Assembly: GCA_038203335.1 (NCBI GenBank)
Contig: JBBRED010000025.1
Span: forward strand, 1-42,861
Direction: 5' to 3'
Source of the DNA: Haliangiales bacterium
GTDB lineage: Bacteria > Myxococcota_A > Polyangia > Haliangiales > Haliangiaceae
DNA: 42,861 bases
A program made the position numbers and the translations under genes. How positions within the stretch are numbered: position 1 is the stretch's first letter; every line of letters begins with the position of its first letter. Positions 16,140 through 26,874 of the stretch are shown one piece after another. A model generated the notes under the pieces. The model saw only the letters and a program-made list of their open reading frames with translations, did not search any database and had not been told where the DNA came from.

Positions 16140-17071
16140 TGGAGCACCGTCAGCTTCAGGTGCTGCTCGAGCAGGCGGAGGTCCAGCGCCGCCTCGGCAA
16201 CCACCGCACGGCGATCGAGCTGGTCCAGCGCGCGCTCGCGATCGATCCGGATCACGCCCGGGCGCATGCCGCCCTCGCGTTCTCGCTGCTCGGCGCGCGG
16301 CGACTGCCGGGCGCGAGCCTCGAGGCTCGGATCGCGCTGTCGCTCGATGGCGGCGACGACTACATCCACTACGTCGCCGGCGCGGTGATGATGGCCGAGC
16401 GCAAGCTCGAGGATGCGTGGAGCCACGTGCTGGTCGCGCTCGAGGCGGATAACACCAGCGCGGAGGCCTACGTGCTCGGCGCGACCATCCAGGTGCTGCG
16501 CGGGCAGAAGGCGAAGGCGCGCGAGCTGCTCGGGGAGGCGCTCGAGCAGAACGCCACGCACTGCGGCGCGCTGACCGAGCTCGCCCGACTCGAGCTGCAT
16601 GACGGCAACCGCGCCGCCGCCGCGGAGCACATCGCGATCGCGCTGAAGAGTGATCCGGTCGATCGCGACGCGCACATCGTGGCCGGCTACATCGAGCTCG
16701 CGGCGGGTAACGATCGCGTCGCCGAGGATCACGCGCGCTTCGTGCTCAACCAGAACGCGACCGACGAAGGCGGCCTCAAGCTGTTCACCGCGGTGAAGGC
16801 GAAGCGCAGCCTCGTGCTCGGTCTGTGGTGGCGGTGGAACATGTGGATCTCGATGCGCGACGAGCGGCGCCAGATCGGCCTCTTGATCGGCACGTTCGTG
16901 TTGATGCGGATGCTGATCATCGTCACCGACGAGCTCGGCTACGAGATGATCTCGATGGCGCTCAGCTACGGCTGGCTCGGATTCTGCGCGTACACGTGGT
17001 TCGCGCCGGAGATGTTCAAGCGCTGGCTCAAGCAGGAGCTCGGCTCGGTGAAGCTCGATCCCGAGTTCTAG
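16139..17071 (+). CDS. TPR-repeat protein with C-terminal transmembrane helices
   Basis: The start MEHRQLQVLL at ATG 16139 overlaps the preceding stop (GTGATGG). TPR-like helical repeats (AIELVQRALAIDPDHARAHAALAF...; ALEQNATHCGALTELARLE...) are followed by two TM helices (IGLLIGTFVLMRMLIIV, MALSYGWLGFCAYTWF). It is the third gene of the ATPase operon. Confidence 0.7.
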   Translation: MEHRQLQVLLEQAEVQRRLGNHRTAIELVQRALAIDPDHARAHAALAFSLLGARRLPGASLEARIALSLDGGDDYIHYVAGAVMMAERKLEDAWSHVLVALEADNTSAEAYVLGATIQVLRGQKAKARELLGEALEQNATHCGALTELARLELHDGNRAAAAEHIAIALKSDPVDRDAHIVAGYIELAAGNDRVAEDHARFVLNQNATDEGGLKLFTAVKAKRSLVLGLWWRWNMWISMRDERRQIGLLIGTFVLMRMLIIVTDELGYEMISMALSYGWLGFCAYTWFAPEMFKRWLKQELGSVKLDPEF

Positions 17072-17817
17072 TTCGCGTCCTGCATCACGAACCGGATCTT
17101 GAAGCCGCGCACGCGCACGGAGACCGGTGCGCCGCCCTTCTCGCCGGGCGAGAACTGGCACTCCTTCAGCGCGGTGATCGCCGCCTCGGTCAGGCCATGC
17201 TCGAGGCCGGAGACCACCTTGATGTCGCGCGCGCGACCCTTCTCGTCGACGACGAGATCGAGGACGACCACGCCCTCGAGCGCGGCGGTCCGCGCTTCGT
17301 CCGTATACTTGCCCGAGCAGCGGCCCTGCGGGAGCGGCATCTTCGTGACTTCGTAGGCGGCGACGGGTGCGGCCACGGGCTTCGCGGCGGCGCTCGTCGC
17401 CGCGCCGGGCGTGGGCGTGGTCGTGTTGCCCACGGGGACCGCGGGGCCGCCGCCGCCGGTGGAGGTCGACTCCATCGTCACGCCGAACACGGGCTGCGCG
17501 GTGGACTCGGTTGCGACCACGGCATGATCCGCGATCGGTACGTCCTTCGCGATCGTATCGTGCACGGTGGCCTGCACCGGCCGCACGACCTTCTCGCGCA
17601 CGACCTTCGGCTCGGGCTTGACCTCGGGCTCCGGCTCGGGGGGCTTCGGCGGCTCGGGCGGAGGCGGCTCGGGCTTCTCGGGCTGGATCACCGTGACCTG
17701 GATCTTGCGGTCGTAGACCGGCGGCGGCCGCGGCGGCAGCGTCGAGAGCGCCTCGCCGAGGGCGAAGTGCCCGAGCACCGAGACGGCCGCACAGATCAGG
17801 ATCCGCTTGTCGATCAC
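17068..17817 (-). CDS. tonB: Energy transducer TonB
   Basis: 249 aa. N-terminal TM anchor ILICAAVSVLGHFAL, Pro/Glu/Lys-rich spacer (PEKPEPPPPEPPKPPEPEPEVKPEPK), and a C-terminal TonB_C-like domain (YTDEARTAALEGVVVLDLVVDEKGRARDIKVVSG...FSPGEKGGAPVSVRVRGFKIRF). It lies downstream of exbB and exbD. Confidence 0.8.
   Translation of the reverse strand: MIDKRILICAAVSVLGHFALGEALSTLPPRPPPVYDRKIQVTVIQPEKPEPPPPEPPKPPEPEPEVKPEPKVVREKVVRPVQATVHDTIAKDVPIADHAVVATESTAQPVFGVTMESTSTGGGGPAVPVGNTTTPTPGAATSAAAKPVAAPVAAYEVTKMPLPQGRCSGKYTDEARTAALEGVVVLDLVVDEKGRARDIKVVSGLEHGLTEAAITALKECQFSPGEKGGAPVSVRVRGFKIRFVMQDAN
17608..17690. repeat. Microsatellite-like GGCTCGGGC/GGCGG repeat encoding the TonB Pro-rich spacer
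   Basis: Direct reading: cggctcgggcttgacctcgggctccggctcgggg ggcttcggcggctcgggcggaggcggctcgggcttctcgggc. Confidence 0.45.
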
Positions 17818-17824
17818 GGCGCGA

Positions 17825-25040: not shown

Positions 25041-25633
25041 TGGCGGCGAAGCTCGTACCTCTGCGCCGGATCAGCGGCGAGACCGCGCAGCTCTCCGACG
25101 AGGCGTTGCTCGCCGCGTGCGGGACGGGCGATACGCAGGCGCTCGGCGCGCTGTTCGATCGGTTCCACGAGGTGGTGTATCGGTTCGCCGGCCGACTCGC
25201 GACCACCGACGAGCTCGCGCGGGATGACCTCGTACAGGCGACGTTTCTCGAGCTGCGGCGCGCGGCGGGCTCGTTCCGCGGCACGTCCTCGGTGCGCACG
25301 TGGATCTTCGGCGTGGCCGCCAATGTGGCGCGACACTCGCTGCGCAGCGAGCGGCGGCGGCGCGCGCGGCAGGCGAAGTACGTCGAGCACATGACGGCGG
25401 CACCGATGCAGGTCGACGAGCAGGTCGAGCAGCGCAAGCTCCTCGCGCGCCTCGAGGAGGCGCTGGAGGATCTGCCGCGCGATCTGCAGGTCGCGTTCAT
25501 CCTGTGCGACCTCGAGCGACTGCCTTCGGCAGAGGTCGCGCGCGTGCTCGAGATTCCCGAGGGAACCCTGTGGCGGCGCTTGCACACCGCGCGGAAGCAG
25601 ATGCGCGAAGCGATCGAGAGGACGTCGCGATGA
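25040..25633 (+). CDS. ECF (extracytoplasmic function) RNA polymerase sigma-70 factor
   Basis: The 3' part of track ORF 24644-25633. Region 2 (FDRFHEVVYRFAGRL...DLVQATFLEL) and region 4 helix-turn-helix (LEDLPRDLQVAFILCDLERLPSAEVARVLEIPEGTLWRRLHTARKQM) are present. GTG start overlaps the upstream stop by 1 nt. Confidence 0.8.
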   Translation: MAAKLVPLRRISGETAQLSDEALLAACGTGDTQALGALFDRFHEVVYRFAGRLATTDELARDDLVQATFLELRRAAGSFRGTSSVRTWIFGVAANVARHSLRSERRRRARQAKYVEHMTAAPMQVDEQVEQRKLLARLEEALEDLPRDLQVAFILCDLERLPSAEVARVLEIPEGTLWRRLHTARKQMREAIERTSR

Positions 25634-26874
25634 CGGCCTGCCCGAACGAGCTCGAGCTCGCGCGCGCCGTGACCGACGGTGCGAGCACCGAGCTGACCGC
25701 GCACCTCGCGACCTGCGCCGCGTGCACGGCGACGTGGACCGAGACCGCGCGCGTGATCGATCTGGCGCGCGGGTTACGCGTGACGATGCCGAGCGCCGAG
25801 CGCCGCGAGGAGCTGCGCACGCACATCCTGGCCGCCGCCGAGCTGGTGCCGACGGCCGTCGCGTCGCCGCGCCGATCGCCAAGCGCCTGGTGGATCGCGG
25901 GTGGTGCGCTGCTCGCCGCGGCCGCGGCCGTGGTGATCGTGGTGGGCGCACCGGCGAAGGTCCACGCGCACGGGACGATCAGCGGTCACGCCGGTGCGCG
26001 GTTCGCGACCACCACGGAGGCGCCCGACGAGATGGTGATGCTCCACGACGGCGTGATCGACGTCGAGGTCTCGCCGCTCCACCCGGGTGAACGATTCCGC
26101 GTGATCACCGCGGACACCGAGATCGAGGTGCGCGGCACCGCGTTCGAGGTCACGGCGGTGCTCGGGCACGTCACGAACGTCACCGTCCGGCACGGTCGCG
26201 TCGAGGTTCGTCCCCATGGCGCCGCGACGGTGATGCTCGGCGCGGGCGAGGCGTGGACCTCACCGCTGCGAACGGCGCAGGTCGTTCCGGTTGACGTCGT
26301 GCCGGCACCCCTCGAGGAGGTGGCGGATGTCTCGTCGGGGGGCGGTGCCGTGTCGCCATCGGTCGTCGCATCGCCGGATCGCGCGCCGGCGCGCCGGGCG
26401 GTCGTGCGCCGAGGCCCCGAGCGCGGCCTCGCTCCGCCCGCGCAGCTCGCCGCCAGCGCGGCCCCGGCGCCGAGCGTGCAGCCGCGGCCGGCGCACGCGA
26501 TCGCCTACGACGAGGCGTGGGACGCGATGCGCGCGGGCAACTTCGAGCGCGCGGCGGCCGTGTTCGCCCGCGTCGCGATCCTCGATCCCGATGGCGCGCT
26601 CGCCGAGGACGCGAGCTACTGGTATCCAGTCGCGCTCGCGCGCGCGAAGCGCTCCGAGGCGATGTCCGCGTTCCGCGAGTTCCTCGATCGCTACCCGCGC
26701 TCTGCGCACGCGCACGAGGCGAGCGCGATGCTGGGCTGGCTGCTCGTCGACGCGAAGCAGACCGTCGAGGCCGAGGCCCGGTTCCGCGCCGCGCTCGACG
26801 ATCCGAGCGCACAGGTCTCGGGCAGCGCGCGCGCCGGGCTCGCCGCGCTCGGCGTCAGCCGCCGCACGCCGTGA
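25630..26874 (+). CDS. Anti-sigma factor: zf-HC2 zinc-finger, TM helix, FecR domain, C-terminal TPR-like domain
   Basis: The ATG at 25630 overlaps the sigma stop (ATGA). HLATCAACTATW is the zf-HC2 anti-sigma motif. A TM helix (WWIAGGALLAAAAAVVIVVG) is followed by a FecR-like segment (FRVITADTEIEVRGTAFEV) and a helical repeat C-terminus. Confidence 0.8.
   Translation: MTACPNELELARAVTDGASTELTAHLATCAACTATWTETARVIDLARGLRVTMPSAERREELRTHILAAAELVPTAVASPRRSPSAWWIAGGALLAAAAAVVIVVGAPAKVHAHGTISGHAGARFATTTEAPDEMVMLHDGVIDVEVSPLHPGERFRVITADTEIEVRGTAFEVTAVLGHVTNVTVRHGRVEVRPHGAATVMLGAGEAWTSPLRTAQVVPVDVVPAPLEEVADVSSGGGAVSPSVVASPDRAPARRAVVRRGPERGLAPPAQLAASAAPAPSVQPRPAHAIAYDEAWDAMRAGNFERAAAVFARVAILDPDGALAEDASYWYPVALARAKRSEAMSAFREFLDRYPRSAHAHEASAMLGWLLVDAKQTVEAEARFRAALDDPSAQVSGSARAGLAALGVSRRTP

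Follow-up and report, generated by a model that had tools for sequence, protein, structure and literature searches.

A TonB operon and an ECF sigma/anti-sigma module in a Haliangiales genome: conserved divergent layout and a shared promoter-like motif suggest a variant envelope-signalling circuit

Cell-surface signalling is known almost entirely from the FecA/FpvA-type, STN-bearing iron transducers of Proteobacteria. A contig from a Haliangiales bacterium (JBBRED010000025.1, assembly GCA_038203335.1) raises the question of whether a comparable circuit can be assembled from other components. In the stretch that we analyzed, 42,861 nucleotides long (positions 1 to 42,861 of the forward strand) and referred to below as the window, the genes for an extracytoplasmic function (ECF) sigma factor and a membrane anti-sigma factor lie divergent from an operon encoding a TonB-dependent receptor (TBDR) and an ExbB-ExbD-TonB energizer. 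A preliminary description of the locus had put forward a variant envelope-signalling circuit in which the sigma factor would possibly control the expression of a dedicated TonB machine. This proposal is supported, at the level of sequence, by conserved synteny and a motif shared by the two operons, and we put at about 70% the probability that the ten genes form a two-operon, autoregulated regulon under the ECF sigma factor encoded at the locus itself. The genes and predicted promoters, with the designations used below, are the following.

g1, 23424-24020, minus strand: small exported beta-rich protein of 198 aa with a signal peptide, heading the minus-strand operon
g2, 22330-23436, minus strand: lipoprotein of 368 aa with the lipobox LAGC
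g3, 21485-22333, minus strand: protein of 282 aa with a signal peptide, a Pro-rich region and a beta-rich C-terminal part of about 215 aa
g4, 18933-21494, minus strand: TBDR of 853 aa, recognized by Pfam
g5, 18255-18920, minus strand: ExbB/TolQ proton channel (Pfam MotA_ExbB, E=3.9e-29)
g6, 17825-18253, minus strand: ExbD/TolR protein (Pfam ExbD, E=7.6e-31)
g7, 17068-17817, minus strand: TonB-family protein with an N-terminal transmembrane helix, a Pro-rich spacer and a C-terminal TonB_C domain (Pfam, E=1.4e-13)
g8, 24123-25040, plus strand: predicted outer-membrane protein with a signal peptide, an N-terminal domain, a linker and a barrel
g9, 25040-25633, plus strand: ECF sigma factor (Pfam Sigma70_r2, r4_2 and ECF)
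g10, 25630-26874, plus strand: single-pass anti-sigma factor (Pfam FecR, residues 130-192, and TPR)
24032-24062, minus strand: predicted ECF-type promoter of g1-g7, AGCGAAGAAAAC-N-GGGCACACA, a copy of the shared conserved motif
24081-24111, plus strand: predicted autoregulatory ECF-type promoter of g8-g9-g10, GGTGAAGGATTC-N-TCGGCACC, a copy of the shared conserved motif

Genes were called from a frame plot of GC content at third codon positions (GC3) and an analysis of start-codon context, the window having a GC content of about 70%. The gaps or overlaps between consecutive genes of g1-g7 do not exceed 13 nt, and these seven genes are therefore taken as one operon. On the plus strand, g8 and g9 overlap through TAGTG and g9 and g10 through ATGA. 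The two operons diverge across a 102-bp intergenic region (24021-24122) with a GC content of 60.8% versus 70.3% for the whole window. When the genes were called anew, the preliminary description turned out to be exact as to the divergent layout and its coordinates, and both overlaps (the first given there as GTG/TAG) and the AT-richer spacer were likewise found.

We then determined how far this arrangement is conserved. The species genomes of GTDB were scanned with a 12-sequence alignment of g8, which yielded 20 loci, and all genes of the window were mapped in them by tblastn; a g2 homologue with 50% identity led to an independent JGI metagenome contig (L021). The g8, sigma and anti-sigma genes were contiguous in all 15 genome loci showing the three of them, as well as in L021, and g8 was found directly 5' of the sigma gene in 16 of the 16 loci showing both. 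Eight other loci (L002, L005, L006, L007, L008, L010, L014, and L021) had the full divergent ten-gene layout, and four truncated by contig ends (L004, L009, L013, and L016) had a partial, consistent one, so the proposed pairing of the sigma/anti-sigma genes with the TonB operon is indeed conserved. The layout is retained while the identity of g8 drops to about 42%. Counted by gene, g1 was syntenic in 12 loci, g3 in 11, and g7 in 9. A rearranged version was observed in L019 (positions 1-5405), where ExbB-ExbD-TonB genes on the same strand are followed by a motif copy (+1802) and then by genes for a lipoprotein, a Cys-rich protein, a Rieske-domain protein, and g8.

The intergenic region contains two divergent copies of one bipartite motif, GyGAAG(G/A)A-N~11-GGCA(A/C)C overall, whose spacers differ by 1 nt. 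At the g1 site, the -35-like GAAG lies at 24059-24056 and the -10-like GGGCACAC at 24040-24033, with the ATG 13 nt downstream, and at the g8 site GAAG lies at 24084-24087 and CGGCAC at 24102-24107. In the orthologous loci the consensus upstream of g8 is GyGAAGGAT(T/C)-N~10-(T/C)CGGCAAC, and that upstream of g1, on the opposite strand, is GCGAAG(A/G)AA-N~11-GGGCACACA, found in 12 loci and in the independent L021. This geometry is compatible with an ECF -35/-10 pair, and the expected ECF-type promoter common to the two operons has thus been found, conserved in the orthologous loci, as a predicted element. It is not the element that the preliminary description had pointed to: GGAAC is present in the spacer (24116-24120, plus strand; 24067-24063, minus strand) but is conserved in no orthologous locus, and on the plus strand it stands 3 nt from the start codon, so that we rejected it as a promoter element; what the orthologous spacers share is GAAG(G/A)A...GGCA(A/C)C. 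A sigma-70 promoter scan and an intrinsic terminator scan found nothing.

We quantified the match between the two copies with a position weight matrix (PWM) trained on the g8-upstream sites of the other loci only, with no g1 site included. Among the 85,534 window positions scanned, the g8 site ranked first (24.0 bits) and the g1 site second (13.3 bits); the remaining matches, none above 11 bits and all in coding sequence, were taken as chance. The g1 site also ranked second in leave-one-out scans of L002, L004, L007, L014, and L016 and first in that of L008, and in L021, which did not contribute to the PWM, the two expected sites scored highest among about 42,000 positions. Even where the two operons are separated by a 3.6-kb insertion (L015), g1 has retained its motif, which ranked second with 18.0 bits. 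Across loci, the spacing between a copy and the start codon of its own operon is constant, while that from copy to copy ranges from 13 to 94 nt, which argues for two divergent promoters and against one palindromic operator; the latter was rejected for this reason. Variants of the -35 element are common to both promoters of one genome (GAAGGGT in L008 and GAAGACTTT in L009), and the variant GAAGAC co-occurs with a W-to-A or W-to-Y exchange in the sigma-4 recognition helix. In all loci, those that show the g8-sigma-anti-sigma trio only (L011, L012, and L020) among them, the promoter of the sigma operon itself bears the motif.

A third copy of the motif occurs downstream of the anti-sigma gene in L015 (+12763) and L011 (+4743), followed by genes for a signal-peptide protein, a 389-aa protein that resembles outer-membrane proteins and has F as its last residue, a SASA carbohydrate esterase, and an MBOAT acyltransferase, which suggests a larger envelope regulon in the L011/L015 clade. 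In a 'Polyangia' clade (L015, 9632-9977; L011, about 1648-1977; L012, about 3246-3575) about 330 nt separate g8 from the sigma-operon motif upstream of it, and the leader behind this distal copy is low in GC, contains CTTGTCTTCC tandem repeats, and shows no convincing open reading frame. In the window itself the block CGATTGTGG (24069-24083), directly upstream of the -35 element of g8, is conserved in the closer loci, gives way to T-rich tracts in those more distant, and could serve as an UP-like element or as the site of a second regulator.

The sigma factor g9, which Pfam assigns to the ECF group through Sigma70_r2, r4_2 and ECF, in keeping with the preliminary description, is by its best matches RpoE/SigM-like and not FecI-type. 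With E from 4e-29 to 4e-15, its top 25 NCBIfam models belong to the SigM, RpoE, SigW, and SigX types and include no FecI model, and its nearest solved structures are RpoE and AlgU, the closest being E. coli RpoE (1or7, E=6e-17). It comprises regions 2 and 4 only and is followed directly, with the ATGA overlap, by the gene of an HxxxCxxC anti-sigma factor, as in pairs of ECF sigma and ZAS-type anti-sigma factors. The N-terminus of this anti-sigma factor, g10, carries a C-x20-HxxxCxxC motif, C4, H25, C29, and C32 of which do not vary among 14 orthologues; a single transmembrane helix follows at about residues 85-107. Pfam finds the FecR domain (PF04773; best E=3.4e-10) and TPR in 14/14 orthologues, with a variable Pro/Ala linker between the two. 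The TPR part is homologous to YbgF/CpoB (2xev, E=1.9e-5; TIGR02795, E=4.6e-14) and forms the C-terminus, and FecR_C/DUF4974, the C-terminal STN-binding domain of FecR, had no match in any of the 14 orthologues. Of the earlier assignment of g10 to the zf-HC2/FecR anti-sigma factors, the FecR part stands; the zf-HC2 model stayed below threshold for g10 of the window and matched 3 of the 14 orthologues weakly (best E 0.006), though the HxxxCxxC residues are invariant.

The protein that heads the sigma operon, g8, belongs to no known family in Pfam or NCBIfam. It has 104 homologues, and all matches with a named source come from Myxococcota/Kofleriaceae metagenome bins or soil metagenome. In an AlphaFold (AF2) model built on an 81-sequence alignment (pLDDT 87.7), residues 27-100 form an alpha/beta domain at the N-terminus, residues 101-142 a disordered linker, and residues 143-302 an eight-stranded barrel, in which pLDDT is mostly above 90. 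Foldseek matched the barrel to 1bxw (E=1.2e-7, TMt 0.73) and 1p4t (TMt 0.76), and with its signal peptide g8 is predicted to be an OmpA/OmpX-like eight-stranded outer-membrane barrel; the fold of its periplasmic N-terminal domain resembles LptE, TolB-N, and PqiC/DUF330. The extra secreted protein reported earlier at the head of this operon is thus correctly placed, and is more exactly a predicted outer-membrane beta-barrel with a periplasmic domain. In a Kofleriaceae locus (L009) g8 is duplicated in tandem (2156-3004 and 3034-3888) ahead of the sigma gene.

On the output side, the receptor g4 has the N-terminus that had been described for it: Pfam finds TonB_C (residues 53-125), a poly-Pro linker follows, and then comes CarboxypepD_reg (146-213; PF13620, 36.7 bits versus a cutoff of 32.3). 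A conserved TonB-box-like PYEIVVMG, the Plug domain, and a 22-strand barrel complete the protein, and a Pfam search found no STN domain (PF07660). The TonB_C-like part is homologous to the C-terminal domain that the operon's own TonB, g7, carries (hhalign, 96.7%), and it aligns with positions 1-97 of the MxcH siderophore-receptor model NF038079. Since these positions are all that aligns, with 58.4 bits versus an equivalog cutoff of 925, g4 was rejected as a full-length MxcH myxochelin receptor. The same N-terminal extension is present in at least eight other 50%-identity clusters of TBDR length and is, judging from these, a recurring feature of myxobacterial receptors and not unique to the present locus. 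A literature search on MxcH and the TonB_C N-terminal extension gave no relevant match. Many proteins of 450-670 aa with four or five tandem TonB_C-like repeats match window positions 21075-21377 (minus strand) in a 50% representative library.

Together, g5, g6, and g7 have the makeup of an ExbB-ExbD-TonB energizer: MotA_ExbB, ExbD, and a transmembrane helix with a Pro-rich spacer and TonB_C, encoded side by side. With NCBIfam, TolQ/TolR models slightly outscore the ExbB/ExbD models for g5 and g6, all of them below their equivalog cutoffs; the best match of g6 is TolR, under its cutoff.

From these parts we propose the following mechanism. At rest, the membrane-bound g10 would hold g9 through its cytoplasmic HxxxCxxC domain. 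Upon inactivation of g10, most likely by regulated proteolysis, as with other single-pass anti-sigma factors, g9 would take RNA polymerase to the two back-to-back promoters of the intergenic region. From the one, g8-g9-g10 would be re-expressed, which amounts to positive autoregulation, and from the other the outer-membrane set g1-g3, the receptor g4, and the dedicated ExbB-ExbD-TonB energizer would be expressed. We take g8 to be most likely the outer-membrane partner of the long periplasmic arm of g10 (FecR domain, linker, and CpoB-like TPR), because it is invariably co-transcribed with g9 and g10, is predicted to be anchored in the outer membrane, and carries a tethered domain. The computations show the gene content, the domain folds, the conserved synteny, and the conserved motif shared by the operons; from these we infer the reading of the motif by g9, the contact of g8 with g10, and what is said here about the kind of signal and the transported substrate.

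The nearest well-known arrangement is FecI/FecR/FecA (PMC11637429, PMC2729926), in which likewise an ECF sigma factor and a single-pass FecR (PF04773) anti-sigma factor adjoin a TBDR. The receptor is predicted to be under sigma control in the present locus too, and a Ton energizer is needed in both; as in FecIRA, the sigma/anti-sigma pair stands beside the receptor, with a putative sigma-dependent promoter upstream, as judged from the synteny and the shared motif. The components differ, however. The present receptor carries TonB_C and CarboxypepD_reg and lacks the STN signalling domain; the sigma factor is RpoE/SigM-like rather than FecI-like; the anti-sigma factor has an HxxxCxxC N-terminal domain, and a CpoB-like TPR where the FecR C-terminal domain would be. 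In addition, the sigma gene is co-transcribed with that of a small outer-membrane barrel protein, and the predicted regulon holds its own ExbBD-TonB and three more exported proteins. The system would therefore work like FecIRA signalling and, having neither STN nor a FecI-type sigma factor, and no match to the FecR C-terminal domain, is by its domains not a member of that class.

Several observations weigh against a ten-gene regulon. The more distant trios (L011, L012, L017, and L020) have no Ton operon nearby, and the L015 contig shows no ExbBD-TonB after the receptor. The pairing of sigma module and Ton operon is therefore lineage-specific, conserved within a Kofleriaceae-type clade, and the g8-sigma-anti-sigma trio is a more widely distributed module. 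The g1 sites of L005, L006, L009, and L010 are visible by eye, yet fall outside the top four with the PWM of plus-strand sites, and the repeated high ranks elsewhere are not independent events, related loci sharing ancestry. The covariation of the sigma-4 helix with the -35 element is suggestive, resting on two or three events. The usual -35 core of ECF promoters is GGAAC or GAAC, from which the GAAG of our motif departs, and an experimentally defined ECF promoter of the GAAG type was not found in the literature searched. Finally, every genome used is an uncultured metagenome-assembled genome (MAG) and the evidence is computational throughout.

The portability of the trio is also what recommends another reading, which we regard as possible but doubtful, namely that the module is an envelope-state sensor of the RpoE/RseA/RseB type. 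In that case g8 would dock the arm of g10 to the outer membrane and shield it from cleavage, a membrane or lipid perturbation would release the anti-sigma factor, and the Ton operon would be a mere output of this lineage. In L017 and L020 the genes around the trio are indeed unrelated ones, encoding CtaA, CtaB, and BamD or else a large Ser/Thr kinase, g9 is nearest to RpoE/AlgU, the N-terminal domain of g8 is like those of the lipoproteins LptE, PqiC/DUF330, and TolB-N of outer-membrane biogenesis or lipid handling, and in other clades the same motif precedes the outer-membrane-protein-like gene, the SASA esterase, and the MBOAT acyltransferase. RpoE-RseA-RseB resembles our locus further in its self-promoter and in the co-transcription of a membrane anti-sigma factor and a candidate exported co-regulator. 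On the other hand, g10 is unrelated to RseA, and the locus encodes no RseB or DegS homologues detectable with Pfam; the co-transcribed protein comes first in the operon and is an outer-membrane barrel, not RseB; and the output is a transport machine, the tight and long-conserved pairing with which in Kofleriaceae suggests a function linked to a substrate.

Cell-surface signalling in the strict sense, which we consider rather unlikely, would differ from the regulon proposed here in the input step only. The receptor g4 would sense a substrate, the dedicated TonB would energize it, and its TonB_C-like N-terminal domain would relay the signal to g10 in the role of STN, with g8 as an accessory or scaffold. 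CpoB/YbgF binds TolA, and TolA is a homologue of TonB, so the CpoB-like TPR on the anti-sigma factor speaks in favor of such a relay, as do the poly-Pro tether on which the extra periplasmic domain of g4 sits and the position of the sigma/anti-sigma pair next to a receptor operon that it is predicted to control. A TolA/TonB-C-like domain is also found on VreA of the PUMA3 cell-surface signalling system (PMC2729926). Yet g4 has no STN domain and g10 no match to the FecR C-terminal domain, the TonB_C extension also occurs elsewhere (in the MxcH model and in the other receptor-length clusters), and the trio persists in L017 and L020 with no receptor nearby.

That there is no regulatory link at all, the motif blocks being read by some other factor (a different ECF sigma factor, sigma-54, or an inverted-repeat-binding transcription factor) and the adjacency being inherited gene order, is very improbable: GGGCAC-N5-TT in the g1 site is loosely like a sigma-54 -24/-12 element and myxobacteria encode many sigma factors, but the loci do not share the -12 GC, for which reason we rejected the sigma-54 reading, half-sites 13-94 nt apart with fixed start-codon distances speak against a palindromic operator, the motif stands at the sigma operon promoter in every locus, as expected for ECF autoregulation, it stays with g1 after the separation of the operons in L015, and the -35 variants shift in concert with the sigma-4 helix.

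Three further systems share features with the proposed sigma-driven regulon. PUMA3 of Pseudomonas aeruginosa (VreA-VreI-VreR; PMC2729926) has the same order of receptor-like component, sigma factor, and anti-sigma factor, a receptor-like component that is not a 22-strand TBDR, a TolA/TonB-C-like domain within the system, and exbBD homologues in the regulon or its neighborhood. VreA, however, is soluble, periplasmic, and made of STN and a TolA-like domain (PMC2729926), whereas g8 has an OmpA-like barrel and an LptE/TolB-N-like domain with no STN, and in our locus the TonB_C-like domain is carried by a real TBDR. The Oar-class TonB-dependent transporter of Myxococcus xanthus (PMC6434023) is likewise from a myxobacterial host, has its own ExbB/ExbD/TonB, and bears a CarboxypepD_reg N-terminal extension distinct from STN; in domain architecture (CarboxypepD_reg, TonB box, Plug, and 22-strand barrel) g4 is of this class. 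Oar and its private Ton system serve protein export (PMC6434023), and the likeness raises the possibility that the present machine exports rather than imports. Unlike Oar, g4 has an added TonB_C-like domain, and its gene comes with those of three co-transcribed exported proteins of no known function and with a divergent ECF module.

The third is the group ECF267 (Casas-Pastor et al. 2021, PMC7826278), described as having FecR-like anti-sigma factors with TPR, lying far from the FecI clade, and having a protein kinase in the neighborhood; compared by description only, g9 may fall within it. A kinase gene lies directly upstream of the trio in L017, and the kinase gene of the window lies 16 kb away. 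The distant trio of L017 (5259-8774), preceded by a 1171-aa Ser/Thr kinase-AAA_16-TPR protein, recalls that description (PMC7826278).

The same cell-surface signalling logic thus appears to have been built from different parts, namely an RpoE-like sigma factor, an anti-sigma factor with a CpoB-like TPR, an OmpA-like barrel, and a receptor with a TonB_C-like N-terminal domain. It is a tentative suggestion, with the odds against it, that the locus represents an undescribed class of cell-surface signalling, in which STN would be replaced by the TonB_C-like domain of the receptor, by the LptE/TolB-N-like domain of g8, or by both, the signal would pass through the CpoB-like-TPR anti-sigma factor to an RpoE-type sigma factor, and what is expressed in response would be a complete Ton machine of its own, including three novel outer-membrane components and possibly serving export rather than import. 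Should the assembly of the signalling logic from different parts be confirmed, the range of routes from an outer-membrane event to a sigma factor would widen, the N-terminal extensions of TonB_C type found repeatedly in myxobacterial receptors would acquire a testable role, and the 'hypothetical' families g1, g2, g3, and g8 would gain a defined promoter and regulon.

Of the three exported proteins encoded ahead of the receptor, g1 and g3 matched nothing in Pfam or NCBIfam; g3 is probably an outer-membrane protein. The lipoprotein g2 has 11 invariant Cys residues and at least 508 homologues, all named matches among the 120 listed being Myxococcota/Kofleriaceae MAGs, and no relative was found for it in Pfam or the PDB, even with a 38-sequence profile. 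We also considered g1, g3, and the g8 barrel as paralogues and rejected this, no relationship being detected (hhalign probabilities of 0.4-18%).

Two groups of genes flanking the locus deserve mention. Beyond the minus-strand operon lies the gene of a 784-aa protein (11530-13884, minus strand) with the Pfam domains MVP_shoulder and Vault_3 and hence a likeness to a bacterial major vault protein; next come the genes of a 946-aa protein (8648-11488, minus strand) with eight CarboxypepD_reg repeats and a PDZ domain and of a Ser/Thr kinase (7490-8647, minus strand). On the other side, an SF1 helicase gene (AAA_11/AAA_12; 26855-28795, minus strand) is convergent on g10, the last 20 nt of which it overlaps; the helicase gene is kept in L001, and an AcrB gene lies directly in its place in L002-L004.

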